This document shows, piece after piece, positions 12,608 through 33,802 of a stretch of DNA of 64,000 bases. Position 1 is the stretch's first letter, and every line of letters begins with the position of its first letter. This DNA comes from Vulcanimicrobiota bacterium (GTDB lineage: Bacteria > Vulcanimicrobiota > Vulcanimicrobiia > Vulcanimicrobiales > Vulcanimicrobiaceae), in contig OY968762.1 in the NCBI GenBank assembly GCA_963695225.1, forward strand, positions 2,592,001 to 2,656,000. Direction: 5' to 3'. The translations under genes and the position numbers were made by a program. The notes beneath the pieces are model-generated. The model was not told the origin of the DNA, did not search any database, and saw nothing but the letters and a program-made list of their open reading frames with translations.

Positions 12608-12727
12608 TTAGAGCGCGTCCTCAGGATCGATCCAGGGCCACGGAATCAGCGCGAGGATCGGAGAGGCGATGATCGTTCCCACAATGATGAGCGTGAAGAT
12701 GAGCGTGGTGCCGAATGTTGCTTCCAT
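12608..12727 (-). CDS. 39-aa single-TM protein MEATFGTTLIFTLIIVGTIIASPILALIPWPWIDPEDAL (not in ORF track)
   Basis: AGGGAG RBS, ATG, hydrophobic helix, own downstream terminator. Confidence 0.7.
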   Translation of the reverse strand: MEATFGTTLIFTLIIVGTIIASPILALIPWPWIDPEDAL

Positions 12728-12778
12728 CGATACTCCCTGTCTGTAACCAAGCGTATCACACGCGGGGTGTAGCTGAAG

Positions 12779-13819
12779 CTACACGCCCAGCGCGACCGGT
12801 TTGAATGCGCGCAGTTGCTCGCGATTCGTGGGGACGGCGATCGCACCTTCGACGATCGCACGGTCGATCGCCGTCAGCCGCTCGCGTTGCGTTTCGGAAA
12901 GAGCTTTGCGCGTCACCGCCGTGTCGGTGAGGCCGATCGCGCCCTCCTCGAGCCCGAGTTCGAGCTGGCCGCTGATCGGCTTCTGCGAAACGGTATCCTC
13001 GCAGATTCGGAAAACGCCGACGTCGATGCGCTTGACCATGCTCGTGAGTACCTTCCCGGATGCGAGCGCATCTTGATCCGTCTCCGCGCCGATGACGTAA
13101 GCCCTGTGTGACTTCACCTCTTCGAATGTGCCGAGCCCCGCTTTGCCGGCTGCGGCGAACACGACGTCGGCATGTTTGGCGAAGAGATCGCGCGCGATGC
13201 GCCTGCCGCCGTCGTAGTCGAAGTTCGAACCGACGTAAGACACGAGCACGTTCACCCCGGGATCGGCCTCCCGCGCGCCCGCAGCGTAGCCCGCCTCGAC
13301 CCGGCGCAACTGCGGCGTATCGACGCCGCCGAGGAACGCTATCGTCTTCGTCTTCGTGACCATCGCGGCGGCGGCGCCGGCGAGAAACGCTCCGTCTTGC
13401 TCGCGAAAGGTAACCGACGTGACGTTGGGGACATTCACGATCGCGTCGATGATCGTGAAGTTGCGCTTGGGCCAGCGCCGCGCGACGGCGGCGACGTCTT
13501 TCGCCATGTCGAAGCCGATCGCGATCGTCTGATCGGTGTCCTTCGTCGCCATCAGCGTCAGGTTCGAGAAGTAATCGGAGCTGCTGCGCGACTCGAGCAC
13601 GTCGATTTGGATGTGCAACCGGCGTTGCGCCTCTTGCAGAGCCGCGTACGCTGCGTCGTTGAACGAGCGGTCCCCGAGGCCGTTCGAATCGGTCACCAAA
13701 CCTAGCTTTGGGCCGGCGTTGACGGGGGGCGGAGTCTTGTTGCAGCCCGCGAGTGGGGCGCAGAGAACGAGCGCGAGTCCTATGAGCGCGACCGAAAGCC
13801 TCGATAGCATCGGCATCAC
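12779..13819 (-). CDS. BMP-family ABC substrate-binding lipoprotein
   Basis: lipobox LAGC, GLGDRSFN, FREQDGAFLAG, LTSMVKRID. Confidence 0.92.
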   Translation of the reverse strand: MMPMLSRLSVALIGLALVLCAPLAGCNKTPPPVNAGPKLGLVTDSNGLGDRSFNDAAYAALQEAQRRLHIQIDVLESRSSSDYFSNLTLMATKDTDQTIAIGFDMAKDVAAVARRWPKRNFTIIDAIVNVPNVTSVTFREQDGAFLAGAAAAMVTKTKTIAFLGGVDTPQLRRVEAGYAAGAREADPGVNVLVSYVGSNFDYDGGRRIARDLFAKHADVVFAAAGKAGLGTFEEVKSHRAYVIGAETDQDALASGKVLTSMVKRIDVGVFRICEDTVSQKPISGQLELGLEEGAIGLTDTAVTRKALSETQRERLTAIDRAIVEGAIAVPTNREQLRAFKPVALGV

Positions 13820-13918
13820 CTACCCCAGGGACGCCGCCTATCCTCCCCGGCGCCGCACCGCGGCGCCGGGGAGGATTCGTTGAACAGGCACTCCGCCTGC
13901 GGCTCCGCGCCCCCCGCG

Positions 13919-14115
13919 CGCCAAGCGCGCGGGGTCCCCCACGGGTAGAGCCGCGGACCCTGCCGCGCAGCGGCGCCGGGGAGGATAGGCGCACGCCAAG
14001 CGCGCGGGGTCCCCCACGGGTAGAGCCGCGGACCCTGCCGCGCAGCGGCGCCGGGGAGGATAGGCGCGCGCCAGGCGCGCGGGGGGCGCGGGTAGGGCCC
14101 GCGGGCCCTGCCGCC
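13919..14115. repeat. 75-bp GC-rich tandem repeat (2 near-identical copies plus a degenerate third)
   Basis: unit CGCCAAGCGCGCGGGGTCCCCCACGG...GGGGAGGATAGGCGC starts at 13919, 13994 and (degenerate) 14069; related hairpin at ~13836-13876. Confidence 0.85.
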
Positions 14116-14141
14116 TGCTGCGCGGTGGAAGGGCCTGGAGT

Positions 14142-14185
14142 GGTAGCGCAGGCTACAGGCCGGACCGGGGGGGCTATGCTAATCT
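14142..14185 (+). promoter_or_regulatory. NtcA-like box (GGTAG-cgcagg-CTACA) plus extended -10 TGcTAATCT
   Basis: GTA-N8-TAC-N23-TAATCT upstream of the small-protein pair. Confidence 0.65.
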
Positions 14186-14283
14186 GCGTCTAGGAGCTGT
14201 CTAGCATAACTCCGGCGGTGCCGTCAGCGTAAGGCTCGGTGCGCCGACGGCTCCTCTTCACGATAAATGAAAGGTTGCGCAGA

Positions 14284-14538
14284 ATGAGTTCGTTCAAGAA
14301 GGCGATCGCAACGTTGGGAGCGGCAGCGTTCGGTTTGTTCGCATTCCTCCAAGTGCACGGGTATGCGCTTGCGACGGAACTCGATGGTAACAAAGAAACC
14401 ATCGGCAAGCCCTATTATTACGGTGGATATCCTGGCCCGCCGACCTGGTTCTGGATCCTTGCGTTCAGCTCCATCCTGGCTGCCGTCGTGGTCTTCATGG
14501 CCGACGCCAGCGTTCGGAACGCCGGCAAGAATCGTTAG
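14284..14538 (+). CDS. 84-aa signal peptide + single-TM protein with PYYYGGYPGPPTWFWIL motif
   Basis: GAAAGG RBS, signal peptide ending ALA, motif shared with next ORF. Confidence 0.8.
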   Translation: MSSFKKAIATLGAAAFGLFAFLQVHGYALATELDGNKETIGKPYYYGGYPGPPTWFWILAFSSILAAVVVFMADASVRNAGKNR

Positions 14539-14580
14539 TCCGTTTGACGTCGATCGCCTGAGTTTGAAGGGGTGCGAAGA

Positions 14581-14862
14581 ATGACTTCTTTGTCCAAGCG
14601 TACGAGGGCGGTCTCGCGTGGCCTCGGTTTGGCGGGGGCGCTCGTCCCCGCCCTGATCGCGGTCGTCCAACAGGTGGCGCTAGCGGCGGGTGATACCTCC
14701 GTACCGAACCCCTACTACTACGGGGGATATCCTGGGCCGCCGGCATGGTTTTGGATCCTAGTCTTCCCCGGCTTCCTTGCGGCGCTCGTGTTCCCAATGG
14801 CCAGTGGCTGGCTGAGCAACGCCTATAAGGAAGCAAACGCCAACCTGCGCAACAGGGGCTGA
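14581..14862 (+). CDS. 93-aa signal peptide + single-TM protein with PYYYGGYPGPPAWFWIL motif
   Basis: GAAGGGG RBS, signal peptide ending ALA, tandem paralog of 14284-14538. Confidence 0.8.
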   Translation: MTSLSKRTRAVSRGLGLAGALVPALIAVVQQVALAAGDTSVPNPYYYGGYPGPPAWFWILVFPGFLAALVFPMASGWLSNAYKEANANLRNRG

Positions 14863-14868
14863 CGCTTC

Positions 14869-14914
14869 GAATACATTGGGGGGTGGCCTTCAGGCCGCCC
14901 CCCAATGTATTTTC
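14869..14914 (+). terminator. intrinsic terminator
   Basis: ATACATTGGGGGGTGGCC-ttca-GGCCGCCCCCCAATGTAT followed by TTT. Confidence 0.85.
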
Positions 14915-15233: not shown

Positions 15234-17006
15234 TTGGCGTCGGCGACGCATGGACGCCTGCGGTTTGCCGGCCTGCTGGGAGCGGTGAGCGCGTTGCTGG
15301 CCCTGGTCCCCGCGGCGATCGTCTACTGGGTCGCGCTGAACACCGTCGGTCCGAACGCCCAGGGCATGTTGATCCGCCCGTTCGTCTTATGGGCGGTCCT
15401 CTCGGTCGAGATCCGTTTTGCGCTGCTGTTCTTCAGCCGCATCCTGGCGCGCGTTGCCGGTGTGGGGATCGGGTACGGCCTGCGCGTCCAGGTAGCCGAC
15501 ACGCTCGGGAAAGTGCCTCTGGGTTTCTTCAACGTACACCAGAGCGGTGCGCTCAAGCAGGCGGCGATCGAGGACGTCGACGGCGTGCAGACCTTCTTTG
15601 CGGACGATTTCATCGAAGTCGTTTCGGCCGTCGTGATCCCCGTGGCGATCGTGCTGGGCTTCTTCATCGTCGATTGGCGGCTCGCGCTCGCCTCGATCGT
15701 GACGTACCCGCTCACGGTGATGGTGCAGCGGCGCCTGGTGGAACGTTCCCGGACGCTCCGCGAGGAGTACGAGCGTTCTCGCGACCGGGTCAACGCCGCC
15801 ACGGCGGAGTTTACGCGCGCGATCGTGCTGCATAAGTCGTTCGGGCAGTCGCATGAATCGGTGCGCGTGCTGGAGTCCGCGATCGATGCGTACCGCGAGG
15901 CATACAGCGCGCAGGTGGAGGCGACGGCGCTCCCCGCGAGCTTGGTGCGCACGCTGACCGGAAGCAATCTCGTCGTCGTGATCCCGCTGTCGTTGCTGTT
16001 GAACGGTGCCGGGGTGGCGGGTCTGGCGACGCTCGTCTTCTTCGGGCTGTTCAACCTGCGCCTCTCCGGCGCGCTGTTGCGTTTGGCGAAGTTGACGGCG
16101 ACCGTCGTGACCGCCGGCGTGAGCGCTCGCCGCTTGGAGGAACTCTTGGATTCCACGGCGCTGGCGGAGAAGGGGACGCTCGAGACCCCCGCGGATGCGT
16201 CGATCGGCTTCCACGCGGTGACGTTCCGCTACACGCGCGAAGGCGGCGGCCGGGACGCCTTGCAGGACATCACGCTGGAGGTTCCGGCTGGGAAGGTGAC
16301 CGCGGTCGTGGGCCTGTCGGGCGCCGGGAAGACGACGCTGGCCCGTTTGGCGGCCCGCTTCTGGGACGTGGACCAAGGCTCGGTCGAAATCGGCGGCTCG
16401 GACGTCCGGAACTACCGCTTGGAGCGCCTGATGGACGGCATCTCGTTCGTCTTCCAGGAAGCGTACCTGCTGGACGACACGGTGGCGGAGAACATTCGGA
16501 TGGGCCGCCCGGAGGTGAGCGACGAGCGCGTGACGGCGGCTGCAAAAGCGGCTCGCGCGCACGAGTTCATCTCGGCAATGCCCGAAGGGTACGCCACGGT
16601 CGTCGGGCGCAACGGCATCCGCCTCTCCCAAGGGGAGCGCCAGCGTATCCAGATCGCGCGGGCGCTGCTCAAGGAAGCCCCGGTCCTGATCTTAGATGAA
16701 GCGACCGCCTCGACGGACCCCGAGAACGAAGCGATGATCCAGGATGCGCTGGTGGCGCTGGCACGCGAGAAGACGGTCCTGGTGATCGCGCACCGCCTCT
16801 CCACGGTGGTGGATGCCGACCAGATCGTCGTGCTCGACGCGGGGCGCATCGTCGCCAAAGGGACGCACGCCGAGCTGCTCGCATCGAGCGACCACTACCG
16901 CCGCCTCTGGCACGACTACACCACCTCGTTCGAATGGGCCATCGCGAGCCCCGAAGCGGCGCCTGCTCCGGCGGCCGGCTCGGCGGCGGAAGGAGCGGCG
17001 CGATGA
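15234..17006 (+). CDS. ABC transporter fused permease/ATPase (YbtP/IrtA-like half transporter)
   Basis: TMD plus GLSGAGKT, LSQGERQR, ILDEAT; TTG start uncertain. Confidence 0.9.
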   Translation: MASATHGRLRFAGLLGAVSALLALVPAAIVYWVALNTVGPNAQGMLIRPFVLWAVLSVEIRFALLFFSRILARVAGVGIGYGLRVQVADTLGKVPLGFFNVHQSGALKQAAIEDVDGVQTFFADDFIEVVSAVVIPVAIVLGFFIVDWRLALASIVTYPLTVMVQRRLVERSRTLREEYERSRDRVNAATAEFTRAIVLHKSFGQSHESVRVLESAIDAYREAYSAQVEATALPASLVRTLTGSNLVVVIPLSLLLNGAGVAGLATLVFFGLFNLRLSGALLRLAKLTATVVTAGVSARRLEELLDSTALAEKGTLETPADASIGFHAVTFRYTREGGGRDALQDITLEVPAGKVTAVVGLSGAGKTTLARLAARFWDVDQGSVEIGGSDVRNYRLERLMDGISFVFQEAYLLDDTVAENIRMGRPEVSDERVTAAAKAARAHEFISAMPEGYATVVGRNGIRLSQGERQRIQIARALLKEAPVLILDEATASTDPENEAMIQDALVALAREKTVLVIAHRLSTVVDADQIVVLDAGRIVAKGTHAELLASSDHYRRLWHDYTTSFEWAIASPEAAPAPAAGSAAEGAAR

Positions 17007-18802
17007 CGGCGCAGACTCTCGACCGGGACGCTCGCGTCGCGCCCGGCCTGAACGGCCCACCCGGCGGGCGGCGAGGCGCGGCGGCTACCGAAATCATCGA
17101 CGGCAACGATCCGCAACTGCGCTCGGGCCTCGTGTTCACGGTGCTCGAGGCGCTCTGCGCGGCGCTCCCGATTCCGATCATCTATTACGCCTTGATCGCG
17201 GCGTTCCATCATAAGGCGTCGGCGGGGACGGCGGCGCTCGTGGCGCTCGGGCTGCTGGCCGTGCTCGCGGCGCAGGCGTACTTCGCCGAGCGCGCGACGC
17301 GGGAGACGCGCTTGGCGATCGTGCGCATGACGTGCCAGTTGCGAGCGCAGGTCGCGCGGCATCTTCGCACGCTGCCGCTGAACTTCTTCACGCAAGGCGA
17401 CCCTGACGAAGCCGTCGCCAAGACGACGCAGGATCTGACGCTCGTCGAGGACGCGCTCACGCAAGGGATCGACGATCTGGCCGGCGGCCTGGCGCAGGTC
17501 GGGTTCGTCGTGCTGTTCTTGTTCGCGCTGGATTGGCACTTGGCGCTGGCGGCCGTGGTCGTGCTGCCGCTCGCGCTGCCCGTGCTGTTCATGGCGCAGG
17601 GCGCCGCCTCGGTCTACGCCCCGCGCCTCCTCGAAACGCGGACGGAAGCGATGCTGCGCATCCTCGAGTACGTCGAGGCGATGCCGCTGCTGCGCGCCTT
17701 CAACCTCTCGGGGGAGCGGTTCGTGCGGCTGACGCGAGCGCTCCAATTGCTCAAGCAACGCTCGTTCTCGACGGTGGTCGCGCCGACGCCCACGGCGTTC
17801 ATCGCGTGGTTCTTCTTTGAACTGAGTTTCCCGACCGTCTTGCTGACGGGGGCGTTCCTGGCCGCGACCGGGACGATCACCGTGACGGTGGAGCTCGTCT
17901 TCCTTGTCGTCAGCATCCGCCTCTACCAGCCGTTGCTCGAGGCCACGGACGCTTACCTCCGTCTCAAGTCCGTTCGCCCGGCGCTGGAGCGGATCGGCGC
18001 GATCCTCTCGACGCCGACGCTGCCGGAACCGGCGAGCGGCGCATTCCCCGAGCACTTCGAGATCGCGTTCAAGGACGTGAACTTCGCGCACGGGGAGAAC
18101 GCGGTGCTCAAGGGCGTGACCTGCATGATTCCGGAGCGGAGCGTGACCGCGATCGTGGGACCCTCCGGTGCCGGGAAGACGACGATGGCCGGGCTTATCG
18201 CGCGCTTCTGGGACCCGAACTCCGGGAGCGTCGAGATCGGCGGGGTCGACGTGCGCGCGATGCGGGCCTCGGACGTGCAGCGCTGCGCGGCGATCGTGTT
18301 CCAGGACGCGTACCTGTTCCGAGACAGCGTCCGTAACAACATCCTGGTGGGGAAGCCCGATGCGAGCGCGGCCGAAGTGGAAGCGGCGGCCCGGGCGGCG
18401 CGCTGCCACGAGTTCATCGTGGGGTTGCCGGCCGGGTACGAGACGGTGATCGGCGAGGGCGGGGCCACGCTCTCGGTCGGCGAGCGGCAGCGCATCGCCA
18501 TCGCCCGCGCGATCCTCAAGGATGCGCCGATCGTGATCCTGGACGAGGCCACGGCCAGCGTCGACCCGATCACGGAGGCGGAGATCCACCGCGCCGTGGA
18601 GTCTCTGGTGACGCGTAAGACGGTGATCGTGGTGACGCACCGGCTCTCCACGATCCGCAACGTCCACCGGATCCTGGTGCTCGAGAAGGGGCGGCTGGCG
18701 GAGAGCGGGACTCACGACGAGCTGATCGCCCGGGACGGCGTCTACGCCCGCCTCTGGCGGGAGCGCGAGCGCGCCCGTCACTGGCGCCTCACCCCGGCCT
18801 AG
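17003..18802 (+). CDS. ABC transporter fused permease/ATPase (YbtQ/IrtB-like partner)
   Basis: ATGA overlap with the previous gene; GPSGAGKT, LSVGERQR, ILDEAT. Confidence 0.9.
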   Translation: MTAQTLDRDARVAPGLNGPPGGRRGAAATEIIDGNDPQLRSGLVFTVLEALCAALPIPIIYYALIAAFHHKASAGTAALVALGLLAVLAAQAYFAERATRETRLAIVRMTCQLRAQVARHLRTLPLNFFTQGDPDEAVAKTTQDLTLVEDALTQGIDDLAGGLAQVGFVVLFLFALDWHLALAAVVVLPLALPVLFMAQGAASVYAPRLLETRTEAMLRILEYVEAMPLLRAFNLSGERFVRLTRALQLLKQRSFSTVVAPTPTAFIAWFFFELSFPTVLLTGAFLAATGTITVTVELVFLVVSIRLYQPLLEATDAYLRLKSVRPALERIGAILSTPTLPEPASGAFPEHFEIAFKDVNFAHGENAVLKGVTCMIPERSVTAIVGPSGAGKTTMAGLIARFWDPNSGSVEIGGVDVRAMRASDVQRCAAIVFQDAYLFRDSVRNNILVGKPDASAAEVEAAARAARCHEFIVGLPAGYETVIGEGGATLSVGERQRIAIARAILKDAPIVILDEATASVDPITEAEIHRAVESLVTRKTVIVVTHRLSTIRNVHRILVLEKGRLAESGTHDELIARDGVYARLWRERERARHWRLTPA

Positions 18803-18830: not shown

Positions 18831-19037
18831 CGTGACCGCCATCACCCATGGGAAGGGCGGTCTTCGCGCATGCTCTTAGCATCCAGCATGAGGGGCAGCC
18901 GATGGTGAAACGGGAGCGGATCCGCGGGTCCGGGAGCGGGGTGGATGGCGTTACGCCCGGCCCGCCGGCCCCAGGAAAGGCGCCCTGCGTCCTTGGTAAC
19001 ACGCGCTACAACGCGGCCGGGACCCGGATGCTACACT
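18831..19037 (+). promoter_or_regulatory. puf promoter with three Crp-family boxes (18831-18846, 18940-18955, 18995-19010) and extended -10 TGcTACACT
   Basis: proximal GTA-N8-TAC-N22-TACACT matches the NtcA class II architecture; distal CGTGA-ccgcca-TCACC is almost identical to the bchF2 box. Confidence 0.7.
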
Positions 19038-19088
19038 CGCTTGGAGCCGCACTGCGGCCAGCCAGCTTGAAAACGGGGGAATAATTCC

Positions 19089-19271
19089 GTGGCAGCTTTG
19101 GAAGATCAGATCGTCTACGAGGAACGCAACGACCTCGTCCCCGAGGTATATCGGGATTTGTTTAACAACGCGGATTGGATCGTGCACCGCTTCACCGTCT
19201 ATGGCGTGTGGGTTTACGTCGCAACGTTCCTCGCGTGCCACACCAGCCTGTGGTGGGGACGTCCCTGGTAG
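19089..19271 (+). CDS. pufB: light-harvesting antenna beta subunit, Chloroflexota-type
   Basis: NDLVP...LFNNADWIVH N-terminus as in Roseiflexus/Chloroflexus beta; second His followed by W..RPW. Confidence 0.93.
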   Translation: MAALEDQIVYEERNDLVPEVYRDLFNNADWIVHRFTVYGVWVYVATFLACHTSLWWGRPW

Positions 19272-19362
19272 TCTTTTCGACCCGTTGGTTTTGCGCTTGA
19301 TCGCGGCGCCGCCGGCTAGTAGCTAGAGCGCCGGTCTCTTAGTTTTAGAGAGGAAAAGCTTC

Positions 19363-19581
19363 ATGGCCCAGTATGTACGTCGTCCGTACAATCCGTACAA
19401 TCTCCGCGCCACCATCGGCGCCTCGCTCGTCGGCGCGACGTTCGTCGCGTTCGTGATTCACTTCGTTTGCCTGGCATCGCCGCGTCTGAACGTCTGGCAG
19501 CCGGTCAATGCAGACGGTTCTGCTCCGACGCAGGCCGAGCTGCAGCCCGCACCCGTCGCTCCCGCACCCGGCGCGAAGTAG
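19363..19581 (+). CDS. pufA: light-harvesting antenna alpha subunit
   Basis: TM helix with A-x3-H (AFVIHFVCLAS..LNVW), GAGAGGA RBS, position between pufB and pufL. Confidence 0.92.
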   Translation: MAQYVRRPYNPYNLRATIGASLVGATFVAFVIHFVCLASPRLNVWQPVNADGSAPTQAELQPAPVAPAPGAK

Positions 19582-19638
19582 TCTTTACTCGTCGTCCGGA
19601 GGACGCCAGCGCGCGGGTCGAGTCGTAACGCCAACGCT

Positions 19639-19666
19639 CGCCCTCGGTCGATTGCGCCCGAGGGCG
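19639..19666 (+). other. pufA-pufL intercistronic stem-loop
   Basis: CGCCCTCGG...CCGAGGGCG 9-bp stem. Confidence 0.55.
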
Positions 19667-19688
19667 GTGCCTAATAGGGATTGGCAAC

Positions 19689-20564
19689 ATGGCAACAGAT
19701 TTTGAATCCATCGAAACCTACTATCGCAAGCCTGGGAAGACGATCCTGGATCGTACGATCTTCGGCGGCGATTTGTTCGACACGTGGGTCGGACGGTTCT
19801 ACGTCGGGGTATGGGGCTGGATCTCGCTTGCGGGAGTCTTTGCCGCGTTAGCCGCCGTGTTTCTGTCTGCTCACGGATCGGGCGATTTCCGTTCGTGGCA
19901 GTCCGGGGACTACGACCTGCTCAGAGGAGCGGTCAATTCTCCGCCGCGCCAATACGGGCTCGGCGTAGCGCCGTTTTACGAAGGTGGAGCGTGGCAGCTC
20001 ACGGTCATCTTCGCGACGGTCGCGTTCGTCGGGTGGGCGTTACGCGAAGTGGACATTTGCCGGAAGCTCGAGATGGGCTACCACATTCCGGTGATGTTTG
20101 CGACGGCCATCTCAGCGTGGCTCTCGGTTCAGCTCGTGCGGCCGCTCTTGATGGGCTGCTGGTGCGAGGGCATGGATCTCGGGTTCACGGCTCACTTAAC
20201 GTGGACGTCCAACTACGGGTGGCGGTTCTTCAACTGGTACATGAACCCGTGGCATGACTTAGCGCTCGCCGGGTTCTTCTTAGGCGCGATGTTCCTCTCG
20301 ATGCACGGCAGTGCGATCTTGGGGACGTTCAACACCGACAAGAATCCGAAAGTCGAAATGTTGCGTGAAGACAATTTCTGGCGCGACTACGTCGGCTACT
20401 CGATCGGCGAGTACGGCATCCACCGGTTGCTGTACTACTGGGGCCTGTTCACGCTGATCAATTGCGACTTGATGGACATCACGGCCGGCCCGTTGGTGAA
20501 GGATTACATCGCGATCTGGCAGTGGCATCTCCCGTGGATTCACAACGTACCGTGGATGCAGTAG
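19689..20564 (+). CDS. pufL: type II reaction centre L subunit
   Basis: GGDLFDTWVGRFYVG, WALREVDICRKL, NPWH, MHGS, GYSIGEYGIHRL. Confidence 0.97.
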   Translation: MATDFESIETYYRKPGKTILDRTIFGGDLFDTWVGRFYVGVWGWISLAGVFAALAAVFLSAHGSGDFRSWQSGDYDLLRGAVNSPPRQYGLGVAPFYEGGAWQLTVIFATVAFVGWALREVDICRKLEMGYHIPVMFATAISAWLSVQLVRPLLMGCWCEGMDLGFTAHLTWTSNYGWRFFNWYMNPWHDLALAGFFLGAMFLSMHGSAILGTFNTDKNPKVEMLREDNFWRDYVGYSIGEYGIHRLLYYWGLFTLINCDLMDITAGPLVKDYIAIWQWHLPWIHNVPWMQ

Positions 20565-20581
20565 GCGGGAAGGAATAGCAG

Positions 20582-21619
20582 ATGGCAACATACATCGACC
20601 CCTATGGCATCGCGGTAGGTCCTCGCGACCCGCTGCCTCCCAAGCCGATCGAATACGCGGAGCCCAGCCCCTACGATCATCACGATCCGTTGGGCATCCG
20701 GATCGGCAAAGCGTTCCGCATTCCGTTCCTAGCGGACACGCTGTTGGTGGATTCCCAGTTTGGGACGGTATGGCTCGGGACGTGGGGCGTCTTCTCGGTC
20801 GCGTTCTTCTTCGCCGGGCTGACGATGTGGGCGGGCGCGTGCCTCGCGCAGGTTCACGGTCATCTCTCGCTGTTCTTCCAGTACTTTGCCAACGTGCAGA
20901 TCCTGCCGCCCGATCAGGGCCTAGGGTATGCTCCGACGCTCGAGAGCGGCGGCTGGTGGCAGTGGTGCGTGGGCCTGTTCGCGCTATCGGTGCTGTGCTG
21001 GCTGGGTCGTTGCTGGGAGCACTGCAAGCGTCATAACTGGCGTCCGTGGCTGTTCTTCGGATTCCTGATTCCGATCATGTGGATGGGGGCGGTGTACTTC
21101 TTCCATCCGGCGATGATGGGGACGTGGGCCGAGGCACCGCAGCTGGGCTGGTACGGCGACTTGGACTGGGCGAACAATTTCAGCATCCGTTGGGGCAACT
21201 TCTACTACAACCCGTTCCACCAGTGGGCGATCGCGAGCTTGTTCGGCAGTTCTCTGCTGATCGGCGCGCACGCCGGGACGATCTTGGCGACGGCGGCCGA
21301 AGGCAGCCATCACGAAGTGGCCGAGATCAAAGAACTGCACTCGGGTTCGTACAAGGCGATGTTGTTCTGGAAGTGGACGATGGGCTTCAATGCGACGCCG
21401 AAGTCGATCCACGTCTGGCTGTGGGCGTTCCCGGCCGCTCTTGGGACCGCGTGTTTCTGCGGGATCATGGCGTGCGGCGTGTTCACGGACAACTGGTATG
21501 TCTGGGGTGTCGACCACGGGACGGTCAAGGAATACGGTCCGATCTCTCGTGACCAGGTTCTTCGCCGGCCGTTGGCGGTGCCGATCGAAGTCGATCAACC
21601 CGGGCTTGCGCGCCCGTAA
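20582..21619 (+). CDS. pufM: type II reaction centre M subunit
   Basis: GGWWQ, LDWANNFSIRWGNFYYNPFH, HAGTILA, LFWKWTMGFNAT..SIH.W. Confidence 0.97.
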   Translation: MATYIDPYGIAVGPRDPLPPKPIEYAEPSPYDHHDPLGIRIGKAFRIPFLADTLLVDSQFGTVWLGTWGVFSVAFFFAGLTMWAGACLAQVHGHLSLFFQYFANVQILPPDQGLGYAPTLESGGWWQWCVGLFALSVLCWLGRCWEHCKRHNWRPWLFFGFLIPIMWMGAVYFFHPAMMGTWAEAPQLGWYGDLDWANNFSIRWGNFYYNPFHQWAIASLFGSSLLIGAHAGTILATAAEGSHHEVAEIKELHSGSYKAMLFWKWTMGFNATPKSIHVWLWAFPAALGTACFCGIMACGVFTDNWYVWGVDHGTVKEYGPISRDQVLRRPLAVPIEVDQPGLARP

Positions 21620-21662
21620 GGACCTGTCGTACTAGGCAGTACTAGCAGTACTAGAGGGTATC

Positions 21663-22784
21663 ATGAGCTTTCGGCGCCTATTGGCTCCATTCATCATCAT
21701 CGCAGCGCTCGTGTTCGCCGGGCTGTTCCAACCGTTACTCGAACGAGCGCGTGCGGAGACCGGGCCGGGACCGAACACGACGCGGCCCTACGAAGGGTTT
21801 GCCGACCGTCAGGCGACGGCGTTCCAACAGCGTCCGACGGCGGTGGTCGGTCAAGGTTCTCGGACCTTCGTTCCCAATCAGCAGTACACGACGTCGGTGA
21901 CGCCGTTCTTGGGCACCCCGTACGGTGGGCCGATTCCTCCGGACCAGGCCAAGGGGGTCGGGCCGGTGGATCAATCGGCGCCGATGGACTACGCGACGCA
22001 GCCGAAGTCGGTCCCGCATGCGTACGTTGGTGGAAAGCTCTTCAACGTCCAGGTCCTCAAGAAGTATGACTACGCTGGTGTGCTCAACCAGATGAATTAC
22101 TTCGCGCAATCTCTGGGCGTGCAGTGCCAGTACTGCCACAATCTGACGAACTACGCGTACGACACCCCGACGAAGAAGCTGGCTCGCAACATGATTGCGG
22201 GGACGATCGCGATCAACTCGACGTGGGTGACTCCGGACAAGAACGCGGTTCCGACGCAGGCGGTGTCGGGCGCGGTCGGATGCGCGACGTGCCATCGCGG
22301 TTCTGCGCGGTTGGACGTTCACTACAACATCGTTCCGGTGCAGTACGTTCAGTATCGTTACAAGACGACCAAGCAACTCGGTTACGTATACAACGCGATG
22401 TACGGCGTGGCGCGGTCGTTGGGCGTGAACTGCCTGTTCTGCCACAACACCGCCGACTTCGTCACCCTGCGGTACTACCCGACGAACAAGCTGGCGTTGC
22501 GGATGTTCTACATGGTGGACGACATCAACCACAAGTACTTCCCGCCGTCGGTCAAAGCGGTGACGTGCTACACGTGCCACCAGGGCGCGAAGTGGCCGGC
22601 AGCGCTGGTGAAGGCCGGCGACGACCAGACCCCGATCGAAAGCGTGGCCGCGCACCCGACCGCTCACTACAATCCCGGCGATCCGGTGGACATGAACGGC
22701 AACGTGAAGCAGCATCAGCCGATCAACGGCTGGAACACCCTCTACCCCGACCGGTTCTGGGGCTCGATGGGAGTCCCCGAGTAA
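21663..22784 (+). CDS. pufC: RC-bound tetraheme cytochrome c
   Basis: four CxxCH motifs (CQYCH, CATCH, CLFCH, CYTCH), SLGVxC repeats, N-terminal signal/TM. Confidence 0.95.
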   Translation: MSFRRLLAPFIIIAALVFAGLFQPLLERARAETGPGPNTTRPYEGFADRQATAFQQRPTAVVGQGSRTFVPNQQYTTSVTPFLGTPYGGPIPPDQAKGVGPVDQSAPMDYATQPKSVPHAYVGGKLFNVQVLKKYDYAGVLNQMNYFAQSLGVQCQYCHNLTNYAYDTPTKKLARNMIAGTIAINSTWVTPDKNAVPTQAVSGAVGCATCHRGSARLDVHYNIVPVQYVQYRYKTTKQLGYVYNAMYGVARSLGVNCLFCHNTADFVTLRYYPTNKLALRMFYMVDDINHKYFPPSVKAVTCYTCHQGAKWPAALVKAGDDQTPIESVAAHPTAHYNPGDPVDMNGNVKQHQPINGWNTLYPDRFWGSMGVPE

Positions 22785-22814
22785 ATCGCGACTCCGCACA
22801 TCAACGCAAAGCAG

Positions 22815-22846
22815 AGGACCGGATCCGCAAGGGTCCGGTCCTTCTC
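22815..22846 (+). terminator. hairpin/terminator after pufC
   Basis: AGGACCGGATCC-gcaa-GGGTCCGGTCCT, GNRA loop, short pyrimidine tail. Confidence 0.7.
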
Positions 22847-22863
22847 GTTCAAAGAGAAGCATC

Positions 22864-22989
22864 GTGCCGCGCAATCAGCTCTACATCTACATCGCCATCA
22901 CCATCGTCGCCGTCATCCTGGGCCTCTTCAGCGGCGCCATCAGCGTCTGGCTCCGAGAACTCATCGAACACGGCCACGGCCACTTCTAG
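22864..22989 (+). CDS. 41-aa single-TM protein MPRNQLYIYIAITIVAVILGLFSGAISVWLRELIEHGHGHF (not in ORF track)
   Basis: GTG start, strong C-ending codon bias, TM helix, His-rich tail. Confidence 0.65.
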   Translation: MPRNQLYIYIAITIVAVILGLFSGAISVWLRELIEHGHGHF

Positions 22990-23030
22990 GTCCGGCTCCC
23001 AGTCCGGCGAAGGGTGAGCCTGCGCTTGTG

Positions 23031-23190
23031 GCCCGCGTCCGGGTCGGGGCGGGGTTCCTCCGCGGGGACGCCCGCGATTTCGCATCCATGCGAAATCGCT
23101 ACTCGTGCACTTTCCGGCTCTCGCCATCGTGGCTCCGCCGGAAAGCTGCACGCCCCGCGGAGAAACCCCGCCCCGACCCGGACGCTACCT
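23031..23190 (+). repeat. ~160-bp structured repeat, copy 1
   Basis: long terminal inverted repeat enclosing GCGATTTCGCATCCATGCGAAATCGC and a second hairpin. Confidence 0.9.
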
Positions 23191-23299
23191 TGGGGGGCTA
23201 CTGCATTCTTACCTCAGTGATCCATGGCCTCGAGTGCCGCTCTGAGCCCGTCGGAGCGGGAGCGGCCGCGGTCTGTTTCGCCTCCGTGCTCATGCCGTG

Positions 23300-23460
23300 A
23301 GGTAGCGGTTGGGGCGGGGGATGGTGGCTCCGCGGGGCGTGCAGCTTGCCCGCGGAGCCACGGATGGCGGGAGCGGGCAAGTGCACGAGTAGCGAATTCG
23401 CATGGATGCGAATTCGCGGGCGTCCCCGCGGAGCCACCGTCCCCCGCCCCGGCCGCGGGC
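23300..23460 (-). repeat. ~160-bp structured repeat, copy 2 (inverted)
   Basis: reverse complement of the copy 1/3 core; same GCCCGC...GCTACCT ends. Confidence 0.9.
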
Positions 23461-23524
23461 AACACCGCGCACGAGCCGGCGGCCCCGCGGCCTAGCCCCC
23501 AGGTGCGCGGAGAAGGCCGGGCGA

Positions 23525-23567
23525 TGAAGCCGAGGCTACAACGGGCGGGGCGCACTTTCGGTACACT
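23525..23567 (+). promoter_or_regulatory. NtcA-like box (TGAAG-ccgagg-CTACA) plus -10 TACACT
   Basis: GAA-N8-TAC-N22-TACACT; shares CTACAACG and TACACT with the puf promoter. Confidence 0.6.
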
Positions 23568-23700
23568 TTGCATGGAGTATTGTCTCACGGCCCCGCCTCC
23601 ACGGGGTCCCGGCCGGGCGTTGCGAAGGCAATGTGCCGGGCGGGCTAGCCGTGAGCCGAGGCGCGTTTCCGACCGCTCGCCGGCTGCTTAAGGAGAAACC

Positions 23701-24135
23701 ATGGCTGTTTTCGCAGAGCTCACGATCCCGATCTTAGCAGTCCCCGAGCCCGAGGCTCGGTGGTTCGCTATTGCCAAGAAGATCGCCGAAGATACGGCCG
23801 GCTCGACCGCCGTTGAGCTCGAGAATTCCATCTTGAAGTTCAAGATCGTGTTCCCCGGGAACCTGACGTCGCTGGTTGCGAAGCTCGCGGATCGCAACAT
23901 CCAGGTCGGGAACGTCAAGGTCGTCCTCTCGGATTTCACGTTCGTCGGTGAAGACGTCGACGCGGGTCAGGTCGTCAAGGAGCTCAACGAATATCCGGGG
24001 ATCGCGAACGTGAGCTTCGACGGCAAGCGCCTCGAAGCGACGATCGCCCCGACGACGGGCAAGCTGCACGCGATCTACCGCCTCTTGATCGAGAACGGCA
24101 TCATCATCAAGACGCCCGTCGCCGCAGGCGCGTAA
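23701..24135 (+). CDS. hypothetical protein, probable tandem ferredoxin-like/HMA-like folds lacking CxxC
   Basis: TAAGGAGA RBS; two beta-alpha-beta-beta-alpha-beta-like repeats (e.g. ELNEYPGIANVSFDG). Confidence 0.8.
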   Translation: MAVFAELTIPILAVPEPEARWFAIAKKIAEDTAGSTAVELENSILKFKIVFPGNLTSLVAKLADRNIQVGNVKVVLSDFTFVGEDVDAGQVVKELNEYPGIANVSFDGKRLEATIAPTTGKLHAIYRLLIENGIIIKTPVAAGA

Positions 24136-27524: not shown

Positions 27525-28208
27525 TTGGAACTGTTTTGGAGCCTTCCAAGCGTCTCACTGATCGCGGGCACGAACGATCGCTCGGTCGAGATGCTATTTG
27601 CCGGATCCCCCGTCCGTCGCTTCGACGAGGGTGGCCGGCTATCAGATCCCGACGCTCGGCCGGAAAGAACGTTCCTTTGCCTTAGTGGTACGCTCAAGGT
27701 GACGAAACTGCTGGCGAGCGGCCGTGAGATCTTGATCACGATCCTCCAGGCGGGTTCGATCTGGAGCGACCGCGCCGTTTTGAACGGATACTGGCGCGAC
27801 GTCTTCATCGAGACGATGGAACCGAGCGATATCGTTGCGATCGAGAACGCCGCGTTCGAAGATTATCTCCGTTCGCGTCCGGAACTCGTATCGAGTTTCA
27901 TGGTTCGCATCTCCGAGCAGGTCAGCGACGCGCTGACGCTGCTCGACGATTTCCGCGGCAGGGACGTCGCCTCGCGCCTGGCGAGCGTGCTGATCCGCTT
28001 CTCGAAGCAATATGGGGTCCCGACGGACGACGGGGTTCGCATCGACCTTCCGGTCACGCACCAGGACCTCGCAAACATGATCGGAACGGCGCGCGAAACG
28101 GTCTCTCGCAACATGGGGCGCTTTCGCAAGAAGGGCATGGTTCGAGAAGCCGAAGGGCACGCTTTGGAAATCGTCAATATCGGCGGATTAGAGTCCCTCA
28201 TCGTTTAG
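27525..28208 (+). CDS. Crp/Fnr-family regulator with CRP-like HTH
   Basis: SGTLKV..L..SGRE; HTH THQDLANMIGTARETVSR. Confidence 0.9.
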   Translation: MELFWSLPSVSLIAGTNDRSVEMLFAGSPVRRFDEGGRLSDPDARPERTFLCLSGTLKVTKLLASGREILITILQAGSIWSDRAVLNGYWRDVFIETMEPSDIVAIENAAFEDYLRSRPELVSSFMVRISEQVSDALTLLDDFRGRDVASRLASVLIRFSKQYGVPTDDGVRIDLPVTHQDLANMIGTARETVSRNMGRFRKKGMVREAEGHALEIVNIGGLESLIV

Positions 28209-33569: not shown

Positions 33570-33590
33570 CCTCATCGGGCTGATCGCGGG

Positions 33591-33750
33591 GCCCGCGGGC
33601 GGGGTGGGGCGACGGTCCCCCGCGGGGACGCCCGCGATTTCGCATCCATGCGAAATCGCTACTCGTGCACTTGCCCGCTCCCGCCATCGTGGCTCCGCGG
33701 GCAAGCTGCACGCCCCGCGGGAGACCGTCGCCCCACCCCGCCCGCTGCCT
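33591..33750 (+). repeat. ~160-bp structured repeat, copy 3
   Basis: core near-identical to 23031-23190 with a different but paired outer stem. Confidence 0.9.
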
Positions 33751-33802
33751 AACCGATAGCAATGGAACTGGCCCGACCTGCCAAGCCCGTGTCCGGCTTC
33801 GC

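Follow-up and report, generated by a model that had tools for sequence, protein, structure and literature searches.

Tandem genes for small predicted membrane proteins accompany the puf operons of one Vulcanimicrobiota clade: candidate accessory subunits of the photosynthetic complex

We analysed a 64,000-nt stretch of DNA (the window, G000:C1:2592001-2656000) from a single-contig genome of 2.98 Mb (G000). The host belongs to the Eremiobacterota (Vulcanimicrobiota), not to the Chloroflexota; its light-harvesting (LH) β chain is Chloroflexota-like. The window holds two small paralogous genes, A and B. These are genuine genes under selection, which form an operon, share a promoter box with pufBALMC, have been duplicated together with puf, and are restricted to a single puf clade. 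The pair is very probably tied to the photosynthetic apparatus, and its products are probably a stable component of a pigment-protein complex. The best reading, to which we assign a probability of roughly 40%, is that A and B are accessory RC-LH polypeptides that would dock on the LH ring as LH1-γ does. They form an undescribed family, whose job is most likely of a known kind.

Genes A and B and their family

Gene A (14284-14538, + strand) encodes 84 residues, with a leader (1-30), a predicted periplasmic linker and motif (31-54) and a transmembrane (TM) helix (~55-76), which is closed by an invariant Asp and followed by a basic tail. Gene B (14581-14862, +; 93 residues) is preceded by a purine-rich RBS at 14566-14572 (+). 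Its product comprises a leader (1-35), the motif, a Pro-containing TM helix and, C-terminally, a conserved Trp with an amphipathic basic tail. The 17-residue motif, PYYYGGYPGPP[T/A]WFWIL, is encoded at 14410-14460 in A and 14710-14760 in B (both +). Both ORFs are thus present as originally predicted, and a re-count gave the same 16 identical residues out of 17. Synonymous codons differ at 6 of these 16 residues, meaning that conservation acts on the protein and that the motif is not a recently copied stretch of DNA. Compared with two orthologues in genome G001, A showed 22 and 23 synonymous versus 4 and 4 non-synonymous codon differences; the synonymous excess indicates that A and B are translated genes under purifying selection. 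Codon bias was uninformative with respect to high expression, because the reference pufB itself lies only at the 19th percentile.

The signal-peptide-like leaders proposed for both proteins were recognised by eye: ALA closes the hydrophobic stretch at residues 28-30 in A and 33-35 in B. The −3 Ala is invariant in 21/21 aligned sequences, and the rest of the leader varies. His25 of A sits in the leader and is not invariant. The proposed single TM helix is consistent with one further hydrophobic segment in each protein (19-residue hydropathy peak of 2.3 in A and 2.0 in B) and with the AlphaFold2 monomer of A, which has two helices (pTM 0.37), one spanning residues 54-82. Small residues (A66, A67, A73) are conserved along the A helix. 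The leader, hydropathy, basic tail and domain fusions predict an N-out, single-TM topology. The leader would export each peptide, and cleavage after ALA would leave a mature peptide of 54 or 58 residues. The Tyr/Pro motif would then be periplasmic, with W-F-W at the membrane edge and the basic tail in the cytoplasm, an orientation opposite to that of LH α/β.

Homologue searches yielded 15 of 81 candidates for B, 5 of 20 for A and, for longer proteins, 2 of 8000 scored candidates. The family comprises 54 distinct sequences (23 A-type and 31 B-type), with tails of 8-18 residues. Asp ends the TM helix in all 23 A-type members, and Trp occupies the same place in 30/31 B-type members. His is absent from the motif to the C-terminus in 53/54 sequences, the exception being truncated; the tail is net basic in 52/54, the other two being truncated. 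One B subfamily (9/54 sequences) lacks YPGPP, and a divergent singleton in G001 lies away from any photosynthesis gene tested. Two 213-residue relatives (P0025, P0054) begin with a leader and a PF07833 domain, followed by an A-type module. All four motif carriers of G000 have 84-93 residues.

The predicted novelty of the family held in the Pfam, NCBIfam and PDB searches, in which, as with Foldseek and the ESM Atlas, no significant match was found. Profile A1 gave 13 matches to PDB sequences at E ≤ 10 with no photosynthetic chain among them; those to K2P channels were rejected. Foldseek with the A model returned 0 matches, and the best ESM Atlas scores (0.84 and 0.85) are leads only. Neither PF00556 nor the CTERM models of NCBIfam matched A or B at E ≤ 1. 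PF00556 is insensitive in this phylum, since it scored pufA of the window at only E 0.19 and did not match pufB. A profile search without filtering, run over 1.84 billion representatives, gave six matches, five of them real clusters. P0023, a 960-residue tandem repeat in which 12 weak stretches had been summed, was rejected, as were the matches Rhodococcus L046 and L114-L116, which covered only 9-25 residues. Neither genes of this kind nor a structure turned up in literature searches or in the available text of PMC9758169, PMC6664022 and PMC12654162; relevant entries may be contained in the gene tables of PMC9758169.

Promoter box, cassette and distribution

A GTA-N8-TAC box, a palindrome of the CRP/NtcA type, is located at 14143-14156 (+). 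In the form GTAGC[AG]CAG[GA]CTAC it lies 94-142 nt 5′ of A at 10/10 pair loci. A putative −10 hexamer, TAATCT (14180-14185, +), with TGC in front, follows after 23 nt; T41, A42 and T46 of promoter alignment A6 are invariant in 8/8 loci. The operon of the putative partner complex, pufBALMC (18996-22784, +), has the same box at 18996-19009, and TACACT begins 22 nt further on, in agreement with the promoter type that the original prediction had ascribed to both operons. A conserved leader RNA of ~95 nt (14190-14283, +) with a probable hairpin (consensus fold −13.4 kcal/mol; double change in 3/17 pairs, which is weak) contains the RBS of A at 14269-14274. Downstream of B, a 20-bp hairpin with a U-rich end (14869-14912, +; −39.3 kcal/mol, z −6.2) may act as a terminator or 3′ stabiliser. 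This hairpin was not picked up by the consensus terminator scan. In 8/8 loci folded, the 70 nt that follow B form hairpins of −30 to −45 kcal/mol. The separate operon that was claimed is borne out, with purine-rich RBSs and, in place of the claimed strong terminator, a strong hairpin.

Exact boxes number four in the window versus 1.5 expected, and 4 of 100 shuffles reached four; the box alone is thus weak evidence, and the real evidence is its positional conservation at 10/10 loci. The four precede D (a further small gene, see below), A and pufB, or lie in the pufM-pufC spacer. Within the window, the box marks genes of the apoprotein type only. None is directly 5′ of any bch or crt gene in the window, although bchF-I-D-H lie downstream of the D box on the same strand. 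G000 has 75 such boxes, eight of them with a −10 hexamer at 21-24 nt; four of the eight stand in front of A (in both pairs) and pufB (in both copies). No box occurs within 260 nt of the G001 singleton. At loci of the other puf clade, GTA-N8-TAC was found 95-137 nt before the pufB match in 11/11 examined, and it looks like a candidate phylum-wide photosynthesis promoter box. It equals the NtcA consensus as given in the available text of PMC3898017. A CRP-family regulator inside the cluster (27591-28208, +), among the ten window ORFs annotated, is a candidate binder. Of the co-expression with puf originally predicted, what stands is the common promoter box, which supports co-regulation at the sequence level.

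A second A/B pair lies 24.7 kb upstream, outside the window, in front of a second pufBALMC, so that G000 has two pairs and two puf copies (97.9% identical over 4.4 kb). The duplicated block consists of pufBALMC and a downstream gene of 144 residues without a Pfam family (G000:C1:2582455-2587492 and window 18991-24129). In the five genomes carrying the family, the pair was found 0.36-4.2 kb upstream of 9/10 puf operons; the exception is the third, inverted operon of G152 (7 kb upstream examined). G001 and G158 have two puf operons each. In G152 there are three, and pufL is frameshifted in two of these. Two ABC exporter half-genes (window 15234-18802) separate B from pufB in a long cassette present in all five genomes, and a Bmp lipoprotein gene also rides in it. 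G000, G001 and G158 have in addition a short cassette, in which the ABC genes are gone and A and B are intact; a remnant of 29 residues persists in the short cassette of L094. Retention of the pair where the ABC genes are missing argues against mere hitchhiking. GC-rich dispersed repeats of 60-190 nt occur at ~13851-14129, 23001-23467 and 33571-33753 of the window. They have dozens of copies genome-wide, some inverted, and are REP/MITE-like.

Our sample comprised 401 genomes of the phylum, 29 of which were pufLM-positive (PF00124 above cut-off). The A/B profile matched six: five real, all among the 29, and one with three stops (G064, 32 positions), which was rejected. None of the other 372 had a real homologue, so the suggested restriction to pufLM genomes withstood the search. 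Among the pufLM genomes, the family is not general: 24/29 gave no match, although many genomes are incomplete and “not found” does not equal absence. In the PufL tree of the 29, the five positives, from four genera, form one clade (100/100) on a long branch, with PufL identities of 88.6-100% inside and 54-60% to other clades; they represent a single evolutionary event and not five independent ones. Of G158 and G228, two members of one genus, G158 carries both this puf clade and the pair, and G228 has another puf clade and no pair; the pair thus tracks the puf clade and not the host genus. Full-length matches in named genomes came from five loci, four of Ca. Eremiobacteraeota and one submitted under the name of an uncultured alphaproteobacterium. 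One B cluster has members named Ca. Baltobacteraceae.

Small TM genes near puf recur in the phylum, and A/B is one clade's version. Gene D (12608-12727, −), overlooked earlier, encodes 39 residues with a single TM helix and no leader, and has its own GTA-N8-TAC box at 12769-12782. A second copy (G000:C1:2581255-2581374) is divergent from the upstream pair. Relatives were found in 12/401 genomes, all pufLM-positive. Judged by its box, D would belong to the same regulon as A/B, and it is a good RC-subunit candidate. Gene C, from the other puf clade, encodes 61-68 residues comprising a leader, GP..WVWIL, a TM helix and a basic tail (L097:13893-14084, L099:13594-13776, L105:13461-13664, L120 and L121). 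In 3/11 other-clade loci, C and a D-like gene are neighbours, 1.1-1.4 kb upstream of pufB, and GT[AG]-N8-TAC occurs at the three loci where C was first seen. Five strong matches to C were obtained in the 401 genomes, all pufLM-positive. The other 11 of 16 (E > 5e-5) were dismissed as noise, mostly leader-only, with one covering the TM part and one holding a stop; the contribution of G008 is confined to the tallies and one discarded weak match of this kind. Homology between A/B and C is unproven (hhalign probability of 34% over 10 columns). PDB searches gave no match for C or D.

As regards the partner complex, the LH β chain is closest in the PDB to Roseiflexus/Chloroflexus-type chains. For V. 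alpinum, pufBALMC and bands at 798/868 nm are described in the available text of PMC9758169. At a G228 locus (L106:2209-3567), PufM carries an OmpA-family domain (E 2.7e-19) as a C-terminal fusion, and an extra pucBA-like pair lies upstream of pufB.

Proposed role and competing explanations

We infer that A and B would be single-helix subunits of the lineage's apparently H-less type II RC-LH complex, seated in the grooves between β chains of the LH ring, where LH1-γ and γ-like peptides sit. Bound there, they would make the ring more rigid, protect its pigments, adjust absorption and control the exit of quinones. By prediction, they share the γ-like layout of a single TM helix, a periplasmic N-terminus and no His. 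An identical docking motif in two paralogues with differing TM helices and tails makes a repeated site the likeliest target, and suits such sites better than L and M, which are ~29% identical. The PF07833 fusions place the motif outside and indicate that a bulky N-terminal domain is tolerated, which also favours the ring. The same holds for the LH chains, which are altered at their periplasmic end: position His+6 of β is G/S in 4/4 sequences of this clade versus W/Y in 10/10 of the other, so that the aromatic is lacking, and α has a conserved longer C-terminal tail (96-97% identity within the clade). Nevertheless, the whole puf cassette is divergent in this clade, as the PufL identities show, and the LH changes need not reflect A/B. 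Tandem copies with a distant divergent singleton (G001) repeat the γ1-3 plus γ4 pattern of Blc. viridis, a further point in favour. Against docking on the ring count the lack of a sequence match to γ or any RC-LH chain of the PDB and of a fold match, the distribution that reflects a single event, the mature length, which exceeds that of γ (36 residues) and γ-like chains (22 residues), the B subfamily without YPGPP, and the G001 singleton without the box. The clade-specific N-terminal insertion of PufC also counts against it, as it fits a position beside the RC too. A complex prediction with two α, two β and residues 31-84 of A scored 0.00, with the controls not folded, and weighs on neither side.

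The main rival to docking on the ring, rather unlikely in our estimate, places one copy each of A, B and D beside the RC as counterparts of Roseiflexus h/Z, I/Y and X. In that position they would substitute for the H helix, which appears to be missing, hold the RC firm against the ring and clamp PufC, a protein with a cleavable-looking leader. WPS-2 is reported to lack puhA (available text of PMC6664022), and a search with PF03967 (H subunit) gave no match, the control genomes being likewise silent. The three small TM genes of the regulon equal in number the small N-out TM peptides of Roseiflexus (available text of PMC10516601 and PMC10432797). The lipobox Cys is missing from all 14 aligned PufC leaders (window 21663-21752 included), 10 of which terminate in A-x-A; the cytochrome may therefore be anchored by neither a lipid nor a helix. 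The neighbourhood of C and D-like genes in 3/11 other-clade loci fits the same placement. However, two sites on L and M would hardly demand an identical 17-mer, the N-terminal fusions fit an outer site better, and A1, C and D have no PDB match. Moreover, an essential H substitute should show in more than 5/29 phototrophs. In layout, A/B differ from H itself (an N-out TM helix followed by a cytoplasmic domain), having short tails and no Pfam match. We consider it improbable that A and B act only transiently, as assembly or membrane-organisation factors (insertion helpers, spacers or envelope tethers). Such a role would agree with the failure to find a PucC/LhaA-family factor in G000 and with the envelope-type fusions of the lineage (PF07833 with the A module; OmpA with PufM in G228). 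It accords poorly with a promoter box common to apoprotein genes and with a hairpin-bounded bicistron duplicated in step with puf; near-invariant short peptides would also be more typical of structural subunits.

A His-free pigment-binding pair is less likely than the readings above. As an α/β-like pair of a separate antenna, A and B would bind carotenoid by way of the Tyr/Trp motif, with non-His ligands for BChl, and we give this a small chance. The two-gene, multi-copy operon resembles pucBA, the Asp and Trp at the TM end are near-invariant, and an Asp ligand to BChl was proposed for the WPS-2 RC (available text of PMC6664022). On the other hand, the near-total lack of His from the motif onward, the absence of an LHC match at E ≤ 1 and the reversed topology oppose it, and G228 uses an ordinary extra pucBA-like pair. 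A similarly small chance attaches to an antenna without kinship to LH α/β: a His-free, reverse-topology heterodimer forming an outer layer or second ring on the RC-LH complex with its own carotenoids and Asp-ligated BChl, in which domain-fused versions would tether the photosystem to the envelope. Least probable is that A and B are carried along passively by a mobile cassette, or form a sorting-signal module at the C-terminus that has nothing to do with photosynthesis. The single-clade distribution and the non-photosynthetic neighbours (ABC pair, Bmp lipoprotein) would suit passengers, but the pair is kept where the ABC genes are missing and has the puf box. The order of motif, TM helix and basic tail, as well as the fusions, resembles CTERM signals, which end many unrelated exported proteins, but almost no cargo precedes the motif, no CTERM model matched, and longer carriers amount to only the two found among 8000 scored candidates.

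In the complexes described in the available text of PMC9640540 and PMC10516601, the small accessory chains came to light only through cryo-EM density, as no annotation existed for their genes. Here, a gene-level parts list is given in advance (A, B and D in this clade, C and D in its sister), together with predicted mature sequences and a candidate phylum-wide promoter box. A and B are most likely extra building blocks of the host photosystem. If the γ-like reading is true, a ring-cladding helix was recruited independently once more, here for the first time as two paralogues, and the pair may offer a way to tune absorption.

Comparison with known systems

The pucBA and LH α/β genes (PF00556) resemble A/B in that two genes for small TM proteins form one operon, occur in several copies and are followed by a 3′ hairpin. 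A and B differ from them in having no His ligand, a leader, a reversed predicted topology and no profile match.

LH1-γ is made with a cleaved leader. In Blc. viridis, γ packs between β chains with 16 copies per ring, is encoded by four genes, and its deletion causes a blue shift of 46 nm; the isolated chain has 36 residues, versus the full-length ORFs of the Fig. 2 legend (available part of bioRxiv 2022.09.24.509313). A and B would likewise be small single-TM accessory chains, with clustered genes and a distant divergent copy. Unlike γ, to which they have no sequence match, they are longer and of two distinct types. Their genes adjoin puf and have its promoter box, whereas the γ genes are far from the cluster, and their host has Chloroflexota-like LH, unlike the γ host.

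The γ-like peptides, N-out as A and B are predicted to be, have little sequence in common (PMC9640540, available text). That of the BChl a host Rhodopila globiformis also has a periplasmic N-terminus, a small unannotated gene and low similarity to γ chains, but it has 22 residues, an N-formyl-Met and no leader, and its gene is far from puf (same source). The Roseiflexus chains h/Z, I/Y and X, also reviewed in PMC10214105 (available text), are three unrelated single-copy chains without a common motif or a sequence match to A/B. Gene D has the 39-codon length of protein Y; its assignment as Y was rejected, as only the length agreed and the sequences did not match. The Roseiflexus chains are small TM helices of an H-less RC-LH complex with B800/B880-type LH (available text of PMC10516601 and PMC10432797), and A and B are proposed as helices of a similar complex.
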